Sequence record: PP449093.1
Direction: 5' to 3' (one strand)
Length of the DNA stretch: 64,000 nucleotides
DNA from: Escherichia coli phage phiS
Shown one piece after another: positions 6,388-50,342 of the stretch. Within the stretch, counting starts at the first letter, position 1. The number at the start of each line of letters is the position of its first letter. The position numbers and the translations under genes are program-made. The notes under the pieces were generated by a model that worked only from the letters and a program-made list of their open reading frames with translations, was not told the DNA's origin and ran no database searches.

Positions 6388-7856
6388 TGAAGATTGAAAC
6401 ATTAATCGCATTGCCAGCGGCGGGGAAAACTGATGCTATACTTTCCCACGTCCTAGAGACAAAAGAAAAAGCGGTTATTGCTTCGCCATCTCGTGTTTTA
6501 AGTGAACAATCTTACAATAAGTTTAAAAGAATGGGCGGTCGTGCTGTCTTGATCGATAGCACAAGACTAAGAAGCCTTAAGACAGTGCAAGCGTCGATAA
6601 TGCAATCAGTTAAAGACGGTGCTGATGTGATATTCATTACACATACAGCGTTATCTAATATGGAACGTTCAAAAATGTTTGGTGAATATGCTCTTTACAT
6701 TGATGAAGTTCCTCAACTGGTTGAATTTAATGAGTATCCGTTTAAGTCTAATCTTGAACTTATCACGAAGCATTGCGAACCAATCGCCGACGAATCGGAA
6801 TGCCTACAGAACTTAGTTCTAAAAGACTCTGAGAAGGCCGCTATCAAAGAAAAGATAGAAAGTGCAAAGGATGGTACTGATATGATCGATTCTTCTCTTA
6901 GAGGGCTTTATGAGGCGTTATTAGAGAAGAAAATCAACGTTATGGTAAAACATAACGAAGGACACCGGAAGAATGGGTCGAAAATTGTTTTCTTGAACGA
7001 TAACAAACACGGTACGTGGGGAGACTTTAAAAAGGTTACGATAGCATGTGCAAATCTCTTTGATACATATAGTGGGAAGTATCTACGATACTATGCAAAT
7101 TGCGATTTTGTTCCGAGTGCGCTAGAATCCAGACTATATTTCAAAGAGTATAAAAATACAGATAGAGTTAATATCATCCTTATGACGGACTCCGAACGAT
7201 GGTCGCGTCACCAGTCAGAAACAAACAATACCTTTGAACGTCTTGTTGATATGGTTAAAAATGAATGTGGTGATGACTTCATTTATACCGTTAATCGGGA
7301 CCGTGAAGCGTGTACAAATGGTATTGGTGAGCGGATACCTTACGGATCTTATGGTCTTAACTCTTACATTCATCATAAAAATGTTGCTGTGATGTTCAGC
7401 TTTAACCCTCAACGATGGGAGATTGATATTTTAAAAGGTCTTGCTAATAGTTGTGATCTCCCGACAAATGAGTTTTTGAAAGCGCGTCATGTGTCTGATT
7501 ATCTGGAACCAGCATTTCAATTATGTTTGCGTTGTAACCTGAGAGACAACGAGAGCAAGGAGAATGTTAATCTATATGTTCCTGATTGGGCGTTGGTGGA
7601 TTATCTAAAAACGTTTCTACCTAATGCCAATGTAATAACAGACCGAATGATTCCGCTAGAATGTGGTGAGCGTAAAGGGCGAAAATCATTTAAAAAGATG
7701 TTCGACTTTAACGAGCAAGAGAATGCAAGATTTAACGGATTTAAGTACCGCATGAAGAAAAAAGGAAAAACTCTTGATCCGTCTGACGGTGAATCAGTAG
7801 AGATGGTTAGAGTGTGGATAACTAAGCAAAGAAAGTATAATGGCAATGGGGAATAG
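6387..7856 (+). CDS. P-loop NTPase of unknown function (489 aa)
   Basis: Walker A-like LPAAGKT near the N-terminus and Walker B-like ALYIDEV. No assignable family. Confidence 0.65.
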   Translation: MKIETLIALPAAGKTDAILSHVLETKEKAVIASPSRVLSEQSYNKFKRMGGRAVLIDSTRLRSLKTVQASIMQSVKDGADVIFITHTALSNMERSKMFGEYALYIDEVPQLVEFNEYPFKSNLELITKHCEPIADESECLQNLVLKDSEKAAIKEKIESAKDGTDMIDSSLRGLYEALLEKKINVMVKHNEGHRKNGSKIVFLNDNKHGTWGDFKKVTIACANLFDTYSGKYLRYYANCDFVPSALESRLYFKEYKNTDRVNIILMTDSERWSRHQSETNNTFERLVDMVKNECGDDFIYTVNRDREACTNGIGERIPYGSYGLNSYIHHKNVAVMFSFNPQRWEIDILKGLANSCDLPTNEFLKARHVSDYLEPAFQLCLRCNLRDNESKENVNLYVPDWALVDYLKTFLPNANVITDRMIPLECGERKGRKSFKKMFDFNEQENARFNGFKYRMKKKGKTLDPSDGESVEMVRVWITKQRKYNGNGE

Positions 7857-26544: not shown

Positions 26545-27063
26545 ATGAGTGAATTTAATTCTTGTGCTGGTCTTGTTAATGATGAAACTATGTCTAAAGC
26601 TGGTATTGCGTATTCCGAGGCAATCACTAGCGGTAAAGATCCGCTGCAAGTAATGTTAGATATGCAAAAAGGATTGCAGGTCGCACTAGCTGATAAATTT
26701 GAGTGGGTAATGCATCCTGATAAGCTGGAAACTTGCGGGGAGATCCTTGACTGGATGAAGTTGTGGGATGACGCAATCGACGACGAGACACGAGAACTTT
26801 ATGTTGCCCTGGGTGGCATGTCAAATGGCAAAGATGCAAGCGCAATTACTAAAGTGTGGAAGAAGAACCACGGCGAAGCACGAGCGCGTAAATTTGCTGA
26901 TCTGTCAGATGACGATAAAACCGAAATTGCGATGGAATTGATCGATATCTGGCATTTTGTGCTGATTAAAATGCTGGGCTTAGGTTTAACCGCTAAGGAT
27001 ATCTTCAAGCTGTACTATCTGAAAAATGCTGAAAACTTCGCCCGTCAAGAACGCGGCTACTAA
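26545..27063 (+). CDS. 56: MazG-like nucleotide pyrophosphohydrolase, probable gp56 dCTPase homolog
   Basis: PLQVMLDMQ...HPDKLET...FKLYYLKNAENFARQERGY fits my recollection of T4 gp56. Position between 61 and dda. Confidence 0.6.
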   Translation: MSEFNSCAGLVNDETMSKAGIAYSEAITSGKDPLQVMLDMQKGLQVALADKFEWVMHPDKLETCGEILDWMKLWDDAIDDETRELYVALGGMSNGKDASAITKVWKKNHGEARARKFADLSDDDKTEIAMELIDIWHFVLIKMLGLGLTAKDIFKLYYLKNAENFARQERGY

Positions 27064-27070
27064 AAATTAG

Positions 27071-27099
27071 TTGACACTACTCTATAATGGTTTTATTAT
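27071..27099 (+). promoter_or_regulatory. Early promoter (TTGACA, 17 nt, TATTAT) followed by a leader hairpin that includes the RBS
   Basis: TTGACA ... TATTAT. Downstream hairpin gcctcc-cgtcgaaagatt-ggaggc plus a T-run sits 8 nt before ATG 27133. Confidence 0.4.
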
Positions 27100-27132
27100 G
27101 CCTCCCGTCGAAAGATTGGAGGCTTTTTTATT

Positions 27133-27636
27133 ATGCAATTTACACCAGAAGAACTTAACATCATTGATCAGGTGATGAACTCTAAAGAAAATATCGATAT
27201 GTCGATCCTTAATGGATTGATTGAAAAGACTGAGCGGTTAGTGCATCATGAAGCCTTGTATCGCGGTGTGAGCAAAAGAGAAGGTCGTAAGCTGGATACC
27301 TTAATTGTAGGCGATTCTTTCGTTGTAGAGCGTCCTATGAGCTTTACGCCACTGCAATCAACAGCAGAGGACTTTGCAACCGATGTTTATGCAACGGGAA
27401 AGATTATTGCAATAAAACCTACCAAGCCTTGCATGAATTATTACGAACATGCTATTGACCGAGTGGTGTCTAAAGAGTATGACAATCCGACTACTCGACT
27501 GTCTTTGTATGCTATGTTGGCAGATGAGCGCGAGTGCATATACAAGACAGGGACGACCATGATCCTTGATGAGATCGAGGAAGTTTACGCGTGTAATGGC
27601 GATCTGATAGAGATTTACAAATTTTCTTTAATTTAA
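27133..27636 (+). CDS. Hypothetical protein (167 aa); possible ModA/ModB-like ADP-ribosyltransferase
   Basis: Ordered YRG ... SFT/QST ... EIEEV motifs resemble the R-S-ExE ART triad. It occupies the T4 modA/modB neighbourhood. The function call is weak. Confidence 0.45.
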   Translation: MQFTPEELNIIDQVMNSKENIDMSILNGLIEKTERLVHHEALYRGVSKREGRKLDTLIVGDSFVVERPMSFTPLQSTAEDFATDVYATGKIIAIKPTKPCMNYYEHAIDRVVSKEYDNPTTRLSLYAMLADERECIYKTGTTMILDEIEEVYACNGDLIEIYKFSLI

Positions 27637-39026: not shown

Positions 39027-39389
39027 ATGCTAGGTCATTCTAAAATAGAAGATTGCTCATTCAGAGCAATGAAAGATGATTTTTCAGTCCTGTACGCGTC
39101 TATCCGAGAGTTGTTTGTAGATTTTAAGCAATTCAGAGAATACAAAGGCGTTAAGATGCGGGAGTGGGTATTCTGGCCTTTCTATATCATTACTCTGTTT
39201 TCTATGGTATTTTGTTTTGTCGGGATCACGATCGCTAGCTTTGTTACTTGCGCTTTCCTGATTATCCGGTGTATCATGTTTGCTTTGATTGCTGCCCCGT
39301 TTATTGTTTCAATCCTTCCGTTAAAATGGCTATTGGATTGGGCTGATAAATCTGATAAAGTAAAGAATGTGATTTGTAAGCGTGTATGA
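39027..39389 (+). CDS. Integral membrane protein (120 aa); possible ac counterpart by position
   Basis: Two or three hydrophobic helices (FYIITLFSMVFCFVGITIASFVTCAFLII, ALIAAPFIVSILPL); directly upstream of gene 52. Confidence 0.5.
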   Translation: MLGHSKIEDCSFRAMKDDFSVLYASIRELFVDFKQFREYKGVKMREWVFWPFYIITLFSMVFCFVGITIASFVTCAFLIIRCIMFALIAAPFIVSILPLKWLLDWADKSDKVKNVICKRV

Positions 39390-39396
39390 GGTGAAG

Positions 39397-40743
39397 ATGA
39401 ATAAATCAGTTACTTACCGTAGCCTTGAAAGCATTGTACATAATGAAGCTAAGGAATATGCGATCTATTCTGCCGAGGAACGCGGGATTCCTCAATTAGT
39501 TGATGGTCTTAAACCAGTGCAACGCTTTGTTATGGAATGTGCTTTGCAAAAGAGTAAAGGCGACCGTAAGAAATTCCGTAAGATGGCAGATATTGGATCT
39601 GGTGTTGCTGAGTTGGGTTATCACCACGGGGAAACTAATGCCGTAGAAGCCGGATCACTCATGGCGAATACATGGAGCAATAATACTCCACTGCTTGATG
39701 GTCAAGGTAACTTCGGATCGCGTTTAGTCCAGAAAGCAGGTGCGGCACGTTATATCTTTGCTCGTGTGCATGAAAACTTCTTTAAAATCTATAAAGATAT
39801 GAATTGCGCACCTAAGCACGAAGATCTGGAACACATCCCGCCAGCGTTCTACTTGCCAGTTGTTCCAATGGTATTGGCTAACGGTATTAGTGGTATTGCT
39901 ACAGGGTATAAAACTGACATTTTACCGCATTCACTGGAAAGCCTTATTGAATGCACAGAGCTAGCACTTGCCGGAAAACTGGATAAAGAACCTAGTGTTC
40001 AATTCCCGAAATTCACGGGTAAAGTTATCCCACGAGATGATCGCGATGGTGTGATTCTTGAGGGTACATATGAACTAAACGGCAAGACTAAACTGACAAT
40101 ATCAGAAGTTCCTTATAAGTTCGACCGTGAAGAATATGTAGCGGTACTGGATGCACTGGAAGAAAAAGATCTGATTGTCTCATATAATGACCGTTGCTCT
40201 AAGGACGGATTCAGATTTGAAGTAACACTGAAACGCGATTATTTCAAAAGCGAAGATGAATCCGCTCGACATGAGCAGATCATGAAGGATTTTAAACTAA
40301 CGCAGTTAGTAGCACAGAATATCGTAGTGGTTAATGAACGTGGTTTAGTCGAAGTATTCGAGAAAGCGAGCGATCTGATCCGTCGATTCGTCGAAATCCG
40401 CTTAGGCTATATAGACAAACGCATTGAATTGATGCAAGCGGAAACGCTAGAAGCATACAATTATGCAATGGCTAAAGCCGAATTTATCGACCGCGTAATT
40501 AAGGGCGAAATCGAGCTACAGGGCAAGAAAAAGGCCGAGGTAATGCAATCCATCAATGGACATGAAAAACTGCGTCCATACGCCGATAAGCTAGTTTCTA
40601 TGCCATTGTATAGCGTTACTCAAGAAGAGTATGAACGACTGGTCAAAGATGCCGATAAACATCATAGTGAATATGAGTATTGGACAAAGACGACCGCAAT
40701 GAAGGAATATAAGAAAGATCTTAAAGAACTTAAGAAGGGTTGA
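39397..40743 (+). CDS. 52: DNA topoisomerase II medium subunit gp52 (GyrA-like)
   Basis: DGLKPVQRF, GYHHGE, LLDGQGNFGSR and RYIFARV match T4 gp52 as I recall it. Confidence 0.9.
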   Translation: MNKSVTYRSLESIVHNEAKEYAIYSAEERGIPQLVDGLKPVQRFVMECALQKSKGDRKKFRKMADIGSGVAELGYHHGETNAVEAGSLMANTWSNNTPLLDGQGNFGSRLVQKAGAARYIFARVHENFFKIYKDMNCAPKHEDLEHIPPAFYLPVVPMVLANGISGIATGYKTDILPHSLESLIECTELALAGKLDKEPSVQFPKFTGKVIPRDDRDGVILEGTYELNGKTKLTISEVPYKFDREEYVAVLDALEEKDLIVSYNDRCSKDGFRFEVTLKRDYFKSEDESARHEQIMKDFKLTQLVAQNIVVVNERGLVEVFEKASDLIRRFVEIRLGYIDKRIELMQAETLEAYNYAMAKAEFIDRVIKGEIELQGKKKAEVMQSINGHEKLRPYADKLVSMPLYSVTQEEYERLVKDADKHHSEYEYWTKTTAMKEYKKDLKELKKG

Positions 40744-40949
40744 TTATGAAAGAATATCCAGAAGGCGGTTATATTGCATTTGTGTACAACAATAAAAAGA
40801 TTGTGCCAATGGTCGTTGAGACTATGGAAGAAGCCAACCGGATCACTATTGAATCTCTGAATAAGTTAGCAGAGATAACAAACACACCAGAACACAGAGC
40901 AACGATAGACTATTTGATGAAAGAATTTTTGGAGGGAAAGTATGACTGA
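40740..40949 (+). CDS. Hypothetical protein (69 aa)
   Basis: ORF from the track. Confidence 0.5.
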   Translation: MIMKEYPEGGYIAFVYNNKKIVPMVVETMEEANRITIESLNKLAEITNTPEHRATIDYLMKEFLEGKYD

Positions 40950-45596: not shown

Positions 45597-45630
45597 AGAA
45601 GGGGAGGCCGAAAGGCTTCCCCTTTAAGTT
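45597..45630. terminator. Bidirectional terminator between convergent early (+) and late (-) transcription units
   Basis: aagggga-ggccgaaaggc-ttcccctt hairpin with flanking A/T runs. Confidence 0.55.
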
Positions 45631-46285
45631 ATCTAATCCTTCCGAGGATTCTGGCAGATTGATTGCAAAGAGTATCTAAATTCTCAATGTCAATATCCGG
45701 TTTATTCTTCCATGCAATGGAGATACTACCAGAATAGACATTATCGAGATTGAATATAGGACAAGAATACATAACCCCTATATCGATACTCTCTAATTTC
45801 TTTTCTCTTGATGGAATATACTGGAAATCTTTATCGGTAAAATAGGATTTACCTAAAAGATGTCTACGATATTCTTCACTCGTTTTATTGATAGGGAATC
45901 CGCCTAAATTTTTTTCATCGATTGTATGCGGTAGCTTTCCTTCATATGCCACCAAATCAACAAAATAGTTTAGGTTTTTCGGACGAAAACTAAAAACAGC
46001 AGAAAAATCGGCATCAGCCGACACATGAACTATCTGTAACTGCTCCTGTGCTGCATTATCAAAATTGCGGTCTTTCTCTACCTGGAGAACGTGAGCATAA
46101 GTCTCATAACGAGTCTCTTTATAAAGCGCAAATAACTCGTTTTTACTATAAACGACAAATGCTAATATAGACAACACGACGGCAGCAAAAACACGAAGTA
46201 CGAGCAACTCCGTGCTTTTAGTTGTGAAAATAGCGCGCAGGACATTTGAGATAGCAAAGTCTTTCCCTTTTTCAGAAACTTGCAT
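45629..46285 (-). CDS. t: Holin T
   Basis: 218 aa; LQIVHVSADADFSAVFSFRPKNLNYFVDLVAYEGKLP and CNQSARILGR match T4 holin T as I recall it. Confidence 0.9.
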   Translation of the reverse strand: MQVSEKGKDFAISNVLRAIFTTKSTELLVLRVFAAVVLSILAFVVYSKNELFALYKETRYETYAHVLQVEKDRNFDNAAQEQLQIVHVSADADFSAVFSFRPKNLNYFVDLVAYEGKLPHTIDEKNLGGFPINKTSEEYRRHLLGKSYFTDKDFQYIPSREKKLESIDIGVMYSCPIFNLDNVYSGSISIAWKNKPDIDIENLDTLCNQSARILGRIR

Positions 46286-46318: not shown

Positions 46319-46558
46319 TTATTTAGGTAGTTGACTATCACTAGGTTTATCTTGCTCGTTGCTATCTTCTGACTGATCTTTATTAAACTCCTTATAAAGT
46401 TCTTCCACAAAACGATCATCAATTGGCGTATTGGTATAAGCCGCAAGACGACGAGCGCAATAGAAGAAAATTTTAGTGAGCATTTTTTCACTAATTAACT
46501 TTGACAATAATTTCATTCCGAAATTAGACAAAGCACCAATGACGATATTATAGACCAT
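46319..46558 (-). CDS. Hypothetical protein (79 aa) inserted between gene 38 and t
   Basis: Strong RBS AAGGAGAA; hydrophobic N-terminal stretch IVIGALSNFGMKLL and acidic C-terminus. Confidence 0.5.
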   Translation of the reverse strand: MVYNIVIGALSNFGMKLLSKLISEKMLTKIFFYCARRLAAYTNTPIDDRFVEELYKEFNKDQSEDSNEQDKPSDSQLPK

Positions 46559-46622
46559 AGCCGTTTCTCCTTAGTAGTTTCCCTTCCGTGGGAGTTTTCC
46601 TTAATTCTTTTTATAATTAAGT

Positions 46623-47405
46623 CTAAACAGCCGGTCCGTAAATGGCTCCGCGATTTTGCCACGTTGGGGCAGACCCTATAACAGCATAACCGGCATCGCC
46701 GCCATTGTATTCATATCCTTGACCACGAATATTACATCTACCTCCTGCGGCGCCTACCTCACCACCGCTTCCGCCATTATAGACATCGTTCATGGACCCC
46801 GAACCAGGCGCATAAAGAGTACCAGCAGTTGCGCCTGATTGCATGTTGGCAGATCCACCAGCAGCACCAAACGGACGACCGCCGCCACCACCAAAAGTTA
46901 ATTTCATTGGTTTCGTAGGAGAATAATACCCACCACCTCCACCGCCACCGCCGCCAGCGATAGCACCGCCATTATTAATTCTTAGCCTCCCACCAATATC
47001 ATTTTGAATACAATGACCCCCAGCTGATCCAGGACTATTGCTACCGCCATTCCCTCCACGACCATACATCGTTACGCCATGTATATTCAACTGAACATAT
47101 TCATTCGGTGTATCTCCATACATAAAGAATAAAGGAACATCTTTAGAATATGATACTAAATCTCCAGTGATATTAAACACTATAGGTGTACTACCTGCCT
47201 CAAAGCATCTATCACGGAACCACTGACCATTGAAGTTATGGTCTGCTCCAAGTGTATGAATAATTTCTCGCGAGCGACCTGCAAATTGACTCATCCAGCA
47301 AGGAACACCCAATCTTAATTGACCAGCCGCTTGACTCATCCATCGTTGTCCTGTTTCATTTACGGATGAACTACCAATCCAACCAGGAACACCAACTACT
47401 GCCAT
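46623..47405 (-). CDS. 38: Receptor-recognising adhesin gp38 (T2-type, glycine-rich motifs)
   Basis: Poly-Gly segments [12 protein letters not shown] and [15 protein letters not shown] typical of T2-like gp38; follows gene 37. Confidence 0.8.
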
Positions 47406-47441: not shown

Positions 47442-50342
47442 TTAGAATTTAAAATATTTACTAATTTTGCGAGCAATTTTAGTGAAGAAAGGAGTTTTCA
47501 ATTCTTTAATTTCTTCACTCATTTCCTGAATAGCCTTAATTAAAAGAGCATTCACAGCAGAGTTAGAAATTGTCAGAACATCGTCTGGATTATCAAGATT
47601 GCCAACCTTTGAAGATTTTACAGCTTCCGGTAATATTTCTTGTAAATCCTGTGCGATAATGCCGATCTCGTGACCGATAATTTCACGGTCTTTAAGAGAT
47701 TTAACTTTATCGTAAGTTTTCACTTTCAGTTTGCCAATTAAACTTAACGCATTTCCTGTATAATCTTCTATATTGTCTTTAAGGCGACGATCTGAACGAA
47801 TATACACATCGTTAAAGCTACCGTTTCCGGTTGCGTTAAATTCACCGCTTGCGTGGAATTGGAACTCCCCAGCTTGAACATGAAGAACAGCGGCTGCGGT
47901 ATTATTACCATCACCGGGACAATGAACGTCCATAGCAGCGATATATTGACGCCCCCAATCAACCGCTTTCCAAACAGCATGAGCACTGTCAATACTTTTC
48001 TGGCAGTCAACCAACAAACCAGCAGGGCGGTCTCTCCATGAAACATATGCACCACCATCAACTTCACCACGGATAAGTCCTTGATCTGCGGCATAAGGAA
48101 CACGCCCTTCCAGTTGAATCATTGCGCCCTTAAAGTGATGACTAAATGGTCCACCGTGGTTATTGCGAATATGTAAAATACCCTCATCGGTCGCCCAAAT
48201 AACAGCCTTTTCTGTTTCGCTAGCATCTCTAAACCAGATATGGCGTGCACCAGTTGAGTTTTTGATGGTTATTCCATTAGGTCCACGCACGGTCAAAGCA
48301 CCGGATACATCAAATAAAACGGTGTCATCTGTTCTACGTTCCGTATAGAAGTGATAACCTTTGGAATCACCGATTTCCATTACTGCCGCGCGTCCAACTT
48401 CTGAATTTCCCCAATTGTTGATAGAGAATCGTTCAGAGCTATTATTCATCTGATTTAGGTATAATGTACCGTCAGTGAAGGTTTCGCCAAAGAATCTGGT
48501 TTTAACGCCGTTAGTACCCCCCACGCGTTCAAATTCAGCCAAGAAACCTTTGGAATCTCGCATACTCAAAACGTTATTGCGTCCTGTATTACTGTTACCC
48601 CAATGGATTAATTCAATATAGTCCATTGACTGACGAGACCCTGATCTAAACACCATATTATCTTCGATGCGGGTGCTACCATCAATTCCCAGATGTAAAC
48701 AGCGTGCGGTAGCTGTGCCACCTAGATCTAATCCACCTTCGGCGAAATCATAGCTGAATGGTCTACGAGTATTCCAATTTCCAAAAGAATCTTTTAAATC
48801 GGTAGTCAGTATATGGAAACTAGTACCATCATTTCTAAAAATTAAGCCATAATTGCCACCTTTAACAGCCAAACGAGCATTTTCAGATAATGCAACTTCG
48901 CTATTCATTACAATTTTCTGGCCTTTACCGCCAGTAATATGCAATTCACCGTTTTCGATCAAGTTTATTGAGTTTTGACCGTTATCGTTCCACCAAATAA
49001 AATCTTTGGTCGTCAAATCACCAAAACCAAACCAGCCATTACGAACATCTTGACCAGTGCGATAATCCATAAAATTAAAATGGCTTGCTTCGTTTGGTCC
49101 TCGACGAATATCAATACCAGCATTAGAACCGGAACCTAAGCCACCATCGATGGTCAATCTACGAATATGCAAACCGGTTACAGCCGAAAGCAATAATTGT
49201 TGGGTTACATCGGTATATCCAGTAGCAAGACGATAATTTTGGTCATCAACACTTTCGTGCCAGATAGTGGCAGGACCAGAGCTTCTAAACCGACGTAACA
49301 TCTTTTTAGCATTTGTCGGTTGTTCGTTCATATGCTCAATGTCATATTGTCCTTGATGGTTGCCAGCAAAATTTAATGTTCCACGGTTACTGAAACTGTT
49401 AAAAGAGCGTATTGTATATGCATCATAGATATGATCAGCTACAGGTTTTTCGCCTACATATTCAGGTCGATCAAGTACAGTTAAATTAACATCGCTGGAC
49501 GCTTGATATTCAGCCATTACCATATTAGTAAATTCGAAGTAACATGCATAGATATCATAAGTGTCATCACCTGTATTAATGGCACAAAATTGATTTTCGT
49601 AACCGGAAACATGATGATACGCAACAAAGTTAATTCCTTTAGGCGAACCGTTGCTAGTCCTTATAACAAGTTCAATAATATTACATTGTCCAGTTCGTCC
49701 TACGTTCCACCCATTTCCACCAATCAATCTAATTTTCAAGCCACGTCCGTCATTTTGCGGAATAAAGGCGGTAGCAATTTTAAACCATCCACTTTCTACA
49801 CCAAAGTTGATGGTCTTCTGGAACATCCGATCTACTTCTTGCTTGCTGTATACATTCAATTCCGACGGACTAGGCTTATCTCCTTCGTGATACATGCGAT
49901 ATGAATATGCTAATACACCATCGGCATTATAACCATAGGTTTTTACAGTAGGGACAATGCTAGAACCATAAGTAAAATCAAACCCACGAGCATGATTGAT
50001 ACCGCTAGGATGGGGAATATGCAAAGCAAGTGCTAGATGACCATCCATATCATTAGTGCGAAATGCCCCGAATTTGTCAAGATTTCGTGCGGTCGGATCA
50101 TCGAAATAGTTTGCGGTATTACTCCACACAAGGTCACCCACAACCACGCGACCGTTTACATTAAAGCCTTTGTCATAAACAGGAGGGCAGCTTAAATTAA
50201 CAATTTGCCCATCATCATTTTTTGTAAGCAGATATTGGTCTGCTAAGTTAATTGCCAACTCTCCCGGATTCATCGTACCAGCATCCGGTTTACGTCCGGC
50301 TGCGCTAGTGCGTTTAAACTGGATTCTGTTTAAATCTGCCAT
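47442..50342 (-). CDS. 37: Long tail fibre distal subunit gp37
   Basis: MADLNRIQFKRTSAAGRKP...GELAINL resembles the T4 gp37 N-terminus. The C-terminal ~120 aa look like an intramolecular chaperone domain. Confidence 0.9.
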   Translation of the reverse strand: MADLNRIQFKRTSAAGRKPDAGTMNPGELAINLADQYLLTKNDDGQIVNLSCPPVYDKGFNVNGRVVVGDLVWSNTANYFDDPTARNLDKFGAFRTNDMDGHLALALHIPHPSGINHARGFDFTYGSSIVPTVKTYGYNADGVLAYSYRMYHEGDKPSPSELNVYSKQEVDRMFQKTINFGVESGWFKIATAFIPQNDGRGLKIRLIGGNGWNVGRTGQCNIIELVIRTSNGSPKGINFVAYHHVSGYENQFCAINTGDDTYDIYACYFEFTNMVMAEYQASSDVNLTVLDRPEYVGEKPVADHIYDAYTIRSFNSFSNRGTLNFAGNHQGQYDIEHMNEQPTNAKKMLRRFRSSGPATIWHESVDDQNYRLATGYTDVTQQLLLSAVTGLHIRRLTIDGGLGSGSNAGIDIRRGPNEASHFNFMDYRTGQDVRNGWFGFGDLTTKDFIWWNDNGQNSINLIENGELHITGGKGQKIVMNSEVALSENARLAVKGGNYGLIFRNDGTSFHILTTDLKDSFGNWNTRRPFSYDFAEGGLDLGGTATARCLHLGIDGSTRIEDNMVFRSGSRQSMDYIELIHWGNSNTGRNNVLSMRDSKGFLAEFERVGGTNGVKTRFFGETFTDGTLYLNQMNNSSERFSINNWGNSEVGRAAVMEIGDSKGYHFYTERRTDDTVLFDVSGALTVRGPNGITIKNSTGARHIWFRDASETEKAVIWATDEGILHIRNNHGGPFSHHFKGAMIQLEGRVPYAADQGLIRGEVDGGAYVSWRDRPAGLLVDCQKSIDSAHAVWKAVDWGRQYIAAMDVHCPGDGNNTAAAVLHVQAGEFQFHASGEFNATGNGSFNDVYIRSDRRLKDNIEDYTGNALSLIGKLKVKTYDKVKSLKDREIIGHEIGIIAQDLQEILPEAVKSSKVGNLDNPDDVLTISNSAVNALLIKAIQEMSEEIKELKTPFFTKIARKISKYFKF

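Follow-up and report, generated by a model that had tools for sequence, protein, structure and literature searches.

A Krischvirus gene between the gp38 adhesin gene and holin t as a member of the PM2 gp l (P18) lysis-factor family

The DNA considered here is a stretch of 64,000 nucleotides (termed the window) from Escherichia coli phage phiS (record PP449093.1), which by a megablast search with a 2-kb region is a Krischvirus, that is, one of the RB49-like "pseudo-T-even" phages. The gene of interest, termed here ORF79, lies on the minus strand between an adhesin gene and a holin gene. The features of this locus, listed from upstream to downstream, are as follows:

47442 to 50342, minus strand: gp37, with Gp34_trimer and Peptidase_S74 matches, upstream of ORF79.
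46623 to 47405, minus strand: gp38 adhesin of the T2 type (PF05268, E = 2e-72; PF21721), upstream of ORF79.
46559 to 46613, minus strand: conserved 5' leader of ORF79, common to RB49-type phages in which gene 37 lies directly upstream.
46567 to 46572, minus strand: Shine-Dalgarno sequence AAGGAG, with an 8-nt spacer to the ATG (46558).
46319 to 46558, minus strand: ORF79, an ATG-initiated open reading frame of 79 aa plus TAA, orthologous to RB49 "Dc5"/RB49ORF251w and assigned to PHROG 402/PF26925.
45629 to 46285, minus strand: t, encoding holin T (PF11031, E = 3e-60), 33 nt downstream of ORF79 and its presumed functional partner or context.

A first-pass annotation had described this 79-aa reading frame between the gp38 adhesin gene and holin t and had credited it with a strong ribosome binding site. 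Both points hold: the gene is real and conserved, and the AAGGAG 8 nt ahead of its ATG is unchanged in RB49 and in phage kvi. In RB49 the start codon has the same position behind an identical Shine-Dalgarno sequence and is GTG; the copy differs from ORF79 at only 4 of 240 nt, which leaves dN/dS within Krischvirus uninformative. A shorter "dc5" annotation corresponds to a start at Met15 and would remove the first predicted helix; because this helix (with F13) is conserved across the family described below, the 79-aa form is the right one. No late promoter of the form TATAAATA was found near ORF79, scans for sigma-70 promoters and terminators around it gave results at chance level, and a TATAAAAA at 46608-46615 is not conserved in RB49. 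Just 5' of the Shine-Dalgarno sequence, at 46579-46594, the minus strand contains a short hairpin (CUCCC-ACGGAA-GGGA), which in RB49 gains a fifth base pair through a C-to-T change; the terminator scan flagged this site on the plus strand only, where no gene terminates.

The same annotation had regarded ORF79 as a small gene inserted between gene 38 and t, from the correct premise that in T4 gene t comes straight after gene 38 (the gap is 20 nt). For Krischvirus this polarity is wrong. The best megablast matches (MIZ4, FL04, KMB43 and kvi) are 93-97% identical to the window across the entire 2 kb, while RB49, Phi1, JSE and dozens of other phages match at about 98% over a region limited to t, ORF79 and about 55 nt 5' of its ATG. 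The similarity to RB49 stops where gp38 starts, and this point marks where the variable gp37/gp38 host-range cassette ends on the right; in RB49 the ORF79 orthologue comes straight after gene 37, and in every Krischvirus examined ORF79 directly precedes holin T. Judged from these alignments, it is ORF79 plus t that forms the conserved flank in Krischvirus, and gp38 that has been inserted or relocated. RB49 carries a gp38-type gene, RB49p079 (NC_005066 45367-46143; L029 8368-9144), whose product is 57% identical to the gp38 of the window. Inasmuch as gp38 occupies the T-even position here but lies about 110 kb from gene 37 in RB49, the adhesin gene has moved or been re-acquired within the genus. 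ORF79 and t, as the invariant right flank of the gp37/gp38 cassette, are therefore relevant to Krischvirus host-range engineering.

Felix O1-like metagenomic contigs contain a fibre with the gp37-like Gp34_trimer plus Peptidase_S74 architecture (L012 1353-5947; L013 563-5948), downstream of which come one or two Gp38_N adhesin genes and, after these, a relative of ORF79. The junction ahead of this relative looks like an adhesin-cassette hot spot shared by two unrelated myovirus groups.

ORF79 was said at first to match no family, yet it is already catalogued as Dc5, VOG1393, PHROG 402 and PF26925. It matches phrog_402 ("unknown function") directly, with E = 5e-20. PF26925 (Phage_PM2_Gpl) is assigned by way of homologues: precomputed matches to this model are carried by all of those found in a collection of 5.8 billion proteins (15 close and 87 wider), including cluster representatives 84-92% identical to ORF79. 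Aligned by hhalign with PM2 gp l alone, a 40-sequence family alignment yields a probability of 92% (E = 6e-7); with a PM2-type alignment of 5 sequences (from PM2, GXT1010, an autolykivirus, Pseudomonas phage Bjorn gp62 and cyanophage S-CAM9 gp154) the probability is 97.4% (E = 1.5e-11, 60 columns). In an hmmsearch PM2 gp l scores 24.6 bits with the family profile, at an identity of only about 17-21% across a very short protein. By these profile comparisons ORF79 is classed in the PM2 gp l (P18) family, as its representative in Krischvirus. The survey of relatives that the first-pass annotation had called for finds the gene conserved in Krischvirus; in a set of 1.84 billion representatives the family profile matches, at E <= 0.001, about 300 clusters formed at 50% identity, nearly all of them stand-alone proteins of 55-80 aa.

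Other searches with ORF79 returned little. Pfam-A without the PF26925 model gave only sub-threshold noise (TPR_LAA1_C, DUF1287), NCBIfam gave no match, and neither collection produced a tail-fibre assembly family, such as the T4 gp38/Tfa-type chaperones. A Foldseek search with the ORF79 model found nothing better than E = 1.4 in the PDB, and the ECD7 orthologue was the sole match in BFVD. Rejected as relatives were a repetitive cadherin/Big-domain protein of 4303 aa (P0130), whose 10 partial matches were taken as low-complexity noise, and weak PM2 gp l matches in Acinetobacter T4-like phages, which run antisense to annotated genes. Every phage record examined labels Dc5 or its relatives (Felix O1-like, 7-11-like and vibriophage) as hypothetical, except for one that has L-fuculose phosphate aldolase. 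No functional statement on Dc5 was found in the literature searched; its sole mention there is as an unexplained arrow in a figure of the fibre locus (PMC6832132).

Given the family alignment, AlphaFold2 predicts three helices and a low-confidence tail (mean pLDDT 70). The individual helices are predicted with confidence, their packing is not: the BFVD model of the ECD7 protein (97% identical) differs by an rmsd of 8.9 Å. The predicted elements, mapped onto the window, are:

46499 to 46555, minus strand: helix 1 (residues 2-20), amphipathic and, in this protein, too polar for a transmembrane segment of the Sec type; it contains two Lys, and F13 hardly varies across the 40-sequence alignment.
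46436 to 46489, minus strand: helix 2 (residues 24-41), cationic and aromatic-rich, with E24, F31, F32 and A35 conserved.
46415 to 46435, minus strand: the T42-x-T44-x-x-D47-D48 motif at the N-terminus of helix 3, the family's most conserved feature.
46364 to 46426, minus strand: helix 3 (residues 45-65), acidic.
46322 to 46363, minus strand: acidic tail (residues 66-79), of low confidence.

Among 232 family sequences the motif is conserved at T42 in 95%, at T44 in 86%, at D47 in 99% and at D48 in 95%. The whole protein is roughly neutral (11 K/R versus 12 D/E), with its charges sorted into two halves: residues 1-44 contain 6 K/R and 1 D/E (+5), and residues 45-79 contain 5 K/R and 11 D/E (-6), in line with the acidic C-terminus originally noted. 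This dipole--a cationic N-half and an acidic C-half--recurs in 71% of the 232 sequences. Tails as long as that of ORF79 are confined, among the aligned homologues, to its closest relatives (58-75% identical), most others being shorter. Residues 52-58 of ORF79 (window 46385-46405, minus strand) and residues 117-123 of T4 gp38 share the heptapeptide EELYKEF, which is the sole similarity to T4 gp38 (blastp E = 0.005 in a search set of only 6 proteins); T4 gp38 is an unrelated chaperone whose gene has the corresponding map position in T4, and the identity probably reflects chance in Glu/Lys-rich helices.

The N-terminal segment had been described as hydrophobic or amphipathic. It is amphipathic; a transmembrane character finds no support, the maximum Kyte-Doolittle value for a 19-mer being 1.31 and the best 19-mer on the Hessa scale costing +6.8 kcal/mol, compared with a family median of +4.3, with -2.1 for holin T and with +1.3 for PM2 P17. 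No family member reaches 0 kcal/mol or less on the Hessa scale, and on both scales ORF79 lacks the genuine transmembrane domain (TMD) by which a holin is recognized. Its N-terminus shows no signal-like features, and a lipobox pattern was flagged in only one of the 232 family sequences (P0093), which is not ORF79. The protein is thus predicted to be of a membrane-surface-active type rather than an integral membrane protein.

The characterized relative is the lysis factor P18 (gp l) of the corticovirus PM2. According to PMC6356626 and PMC9502842--two secondary sources that summarize Krupovic et al. 2007 and from which the phenotype is taken here--P18 is required for, or aids, disruption of the outer membrane, and P17 (gp k) is the holin that permeabilizes the cytoplasmic membrane. 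Proteins P12-P18 are described as non-structural in PMC5656799. Genes k and l are adjacent and overlap, at the end of the late operon. Like ORF79, gp l is small, with the same layout of helix, TxTxxDD-like motif and acidic helix, has a cationic N-half and an acidic C-half, and is encoded where a late operon ends, next to the gene for the single-TMD holin of the phage. Unlike ORF79, it has 51 aa, with a shorter helix 1 and no long acidic tail, and its motif is degenerate (S-x-N-x-x-D-N). The gene order also differs, the holin gene preceding that of P18 in PM2 whereas the P18-like gene precedes the holin gene here, as do the hosts (marine Pseudoalteromonas versus E. coli). Finally, PM2 stands on a published list of phages without spanins (PMC6139136), whereas spanins are present in RB49-type phages; none of the phages named on that list is among the matches listed in the P18-family search.

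In the genomes and contigs where relatives of ORF79 occur, their genes are placed as follows:

Shewanella contigs L009 and L010: directly after a Phage_lysozyme gene.
Contig L018: directly after a Phage_lysozyme gene, inserted between topoisomerase genes.
Contig L011: directly after the gene for a 1112-aa lysin (Phage_lysozyme).
Contig L016: directly after an Amidase_3 gene.
Vibrio phage 1.090.B: directly after a GH108 endolysin gene.
Felix O1-like phages: directly before the gene for a protein of 111-124 aa that combines a single N-terminal TMD with a long coiled coil and is often annotated as holin (phrog_4038).
Pseudomonas phage Bjorn: directly before the gene for a similar TMD-coiled-coil protein.
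Krischvirus: directly before holin T.
7-11-like and Lahexavirus podoviruses: in the structural module, beside an SU10-type adaptor gene and with no adjoining lysis gene.
Contig L015, the only such case: after a Tad2-like gene.

Linkage to three unrelated types of endolysin and to several unrelated single-TMD proteins of holin type is hard to explain other than by a role in lysis. The phrog_4038 proteins and Bjorn gp61 have a common N-terminus, MKWLxD, that leads into one TMD and then a long coiled coil; such neighbours occur at L003 3686-4060, L007 3201-3536, L012 6222-6566 and L021 2670-2918. Their architecture is that of the PM2 holin P17 and also that of an i-spanin. Between the Felix O1-like or Bjorn neighbour and either PM2 P17 or holin T homology is undetectable, the likeness being one of architecture alone.

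The reading favoured here, to which we give about an even chance, is that ORF79 is a membrane-active, pro-lysis accessory factor that acts after holin T and is auxiliary to the spanins. We infer that it may have retained the role of P18, and likewise the order of events, the self-masking and the effect on cations that are outlined in the following scheme. ORF79 would be a non-enzymatic, helical lysis accessory (of a family of 50-80 aa), made late and co-transcribed with holin T, that collects as a three-helix hairpin, either in the cytoplasm or against the cytoplasmic side of the inner membrane. There the acidic helix 3 and tail would neutralize the cationic, aromatic-rich amphipathic helices 1 and 2. 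Once holin T has triggered and the endolysin has opened the murein, ORF79 would gain the periplasmic side, where helices 1 and 2 would insert into and destabilize the last barrier, the outer membrane, and the acidic region of TxTxxDD and helix 3 may compete with LPS for the divalent cations by which it is stiffened. In this scheme it would assist T4-type spanins rather than serve as the sole disruptor of the outer membrane. PMC6139136 credits RB49, Phi1 and JSE with T4-type spanins, and Felix O1 and 7-11 with spanins as well; the RB49 record annotates them as pseT.2/pseT.3. Because RB49-type phages already possess such spanins, and RB49 the antiholin RI as well, ORF79 can be auxiliary or condition-specific at most. 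Counting against a pro-lysis role are the 7-11-like and Lahexavirus members, which lie in the structural module without a lysis gene alongside; these placements are not contradictory, since the lysis pairs of PM2 and Bjorn also sit inside a late structural operon. On the same side of the balance stand the low identity to PM2 gp l, the roughly neutral overall charge, the differing predictions of helix packing, and the finding that phages named as spanin-less do not appear among the matches listed for the family.

It is unlikely, but would account for the position of the gene immediately upstream of t in every Krischvirus examined, that ORF79 instead modulates the holin, binding the cytoplasmic N-terminus or the TMD of T and tuning its timing as a cytoplasmic antiholin or co-holin in place of RIII. 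The family is paired with single-TMD holin-type genes in PM2, Felix O1-like phages and Bjorn, which with Krischvirus makes four lineages. The T4 proteins RI and RIII are likewise small and act with holin T, as is presumed for ORF79, and RIII (82 aa) is a helical, cytoplasmic protein of similar length. Phage CSP1 provides a precedent in the form of antiholin genes behind an S74-type tail-fibre gene, although their products, of 235 and 122 aa, are far larger. By tblastn no rIII homologue was found in RB49 (37-87 kb and 100-138 kb) or in the window. T4 has rIII between 30.9 and gene 31; RB49 has beside its gene-31-type co-chaperone gene only a 54-aa hypothetical, RB49p215 (NC_005066 126078-126242; L030 26079-26243). 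Krischviruses may, to judge from these sequences, be without the cytoplasmic antiholin RIII. A weak RIII candidate at 7628-7801 of the window was rejected as lying antisense inside a gene of 489 aa.

Several observations speak against such modulation of the holin. Compared by blastp with RI, RI.1 and RIII, ORF79 gives no match at E <= 100; RB49 retains an rI gene at the syntenic place; and RI is secreted, whereas ORF79 is without a signal-like N-terminus. Many relatives lie beside an endolysin gene without an adjoining TMD protein, so that holin-specific binding is not what unites the family. Moreover, T4 antiholins delay lysis, whereas PM2 P18 is described as needed for lysis. Hence, of the antiholin-like, lysis-timing role that had been suggested initially, the connection with lysis is upheld by the homology to P18 and by the gene neighbourhoods, but the antiholin component is not.

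Quite improbable is a part in the tail fibre, the other role suggested initially, whereby ORF79 would be a factor for assembly or attachment of the distal fibre or adhesin, or else no more than the conserved recombination flank to the right of the host-range cassette, without any role in lysis. In Krischvirus and Ounavirinae the gene is always preceded by that for the distal fibre or adhesin; in 7-11 it is found among tail genes resembling those of the Felix O1-like phage phiEa21-4; in podoviruses it adjoins the SU10-type adaptor gene; and ORF79 is almost invariant while gp37 and gp38 vary. Such a role leaves unexplained the endolysin-adjacent relatives in phages with no fibre gene nearby. ORF79 is also 97-100% identical among Krischviruses that differ at the fibre/adhesin flank (gp38 being present or not), and is therefore not tuned to the adhesin. 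The fibre, for its part, already has the S74 intramolecular chaperone, RB49 has a gp57A-type chaperone, and the PM2 homologue is a non-structural protein and lysis factor.

Scarcely probable, finally, is a holin-like former of lesions, whose amphipathic helices would oligomerize in the inner membrane and release the endolysin, as the main holin in cassettes of endolysin plus family member and redundantly here: several cassettes do consist of these two genes with no other adjoining TMD protein, and helix 1 reaches a Kyte-Doolittle value of at least 1.6 in 47% of members, but the Hessa values given above, the two Lys inside helix 1, the existence of separate holins (P17 in PM2, T in the ORF79 phage) and the TM-helix genes elsewhere in Vibrio phage 1.090.B, which could include a holin, all argue against it.

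A pro-lysis accessory that acts on the outer membrane after holin and endolysin has a counterpart in the disruptin gp28 of coliphage phiKT (Holt et al.; bioRxiv 10.1101/515445), for which the same site and order of action have been proposed. Like ORF79, gp28 is small, helical and amphipathic and has no signal sequence, and its gene adjoins endolysin and holin genes, as in the ORF79 family. The two are not homologous. Gp28 has a net charge of +7, whereas ORF79 is roughly neutral overall, with a dipole whose N-half is amphipathic and carries +5; and gp28 replaces spanins, whereas ORF79 coexists with them. The disruptin class is without a sequence definition, and gp28 has no database homologues except a near-identical protein in a closely related phage (bioRxiv 10.1101/515445). 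The spanins (T4 PseT.3/PseT.2 and lambda Rz/Rz1) serve the same outer-membrane step as is proposed for ORF79, and several relatives of ORF79 occupy the slot straight after the endolysin gene, where lambda has Rz/Rz1. But spanins have either an N-terminal TMD and a periplasmic coiled coil or a lipobox, and ORF79 has neither; it is also far too short to span the periplasm.

ORF79 does not represent a new type of system, as the founding member of its family has a published lysis phenotype. Two points go beyond the literature searched: across tailed phages the family is paired with endolysins and holins, and it occurs together with spanins. More generally, though this is doubtful at present, P18-like proteins may form a third widespread class of envelope disruptors in phages of Gram-negative bacteria, separate from spanins and cationic disruptins, which travel as a pair of genes with an endolysin or a single-TMD holin and which in T4-like and Felix O1-like coliphages work beside spanins, for example where the outer membrane is stiffened by divalent cations. 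If so, ORF79 in an RB49-like phage would open to E. coli genetics a mechanism recorded until now only from a single marine corticovirus. Linking Dc5 to PM2 P18 and to the endolysin/holin pairing gives a set of hypothetical genes a testable role in lysis, and brings a poorly understood step of PM2 lysis into phages of E. coli and Salmonella, for which lambda-based complementation assays exist.

Two outlying relatives deserve mention. S-CAM9 gp154 of a Synechococcus phage (65 aa; L020 2513-2710) scores 16 bits against the family profile and has relatives on hundreds of marine contigs; the genes beside it have no Pfam matches. Many T4-like cyanophages stand on the published list of phages without spanins, S-CAM9 itself not being among those named (PMC6139136). 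In Vibrio phage 1.090.B (L028), the GH108 and P18-like pair lies at 26575-27308 on the minus strand, among recombination genes and on the strand opposite to the structural genes, and four TM-helix genes cluster at 39331-40746 on the plus strand, immediately ahead of the genome end; this P22-like vibriophage seems to have its lysis functions distributed over two loci.
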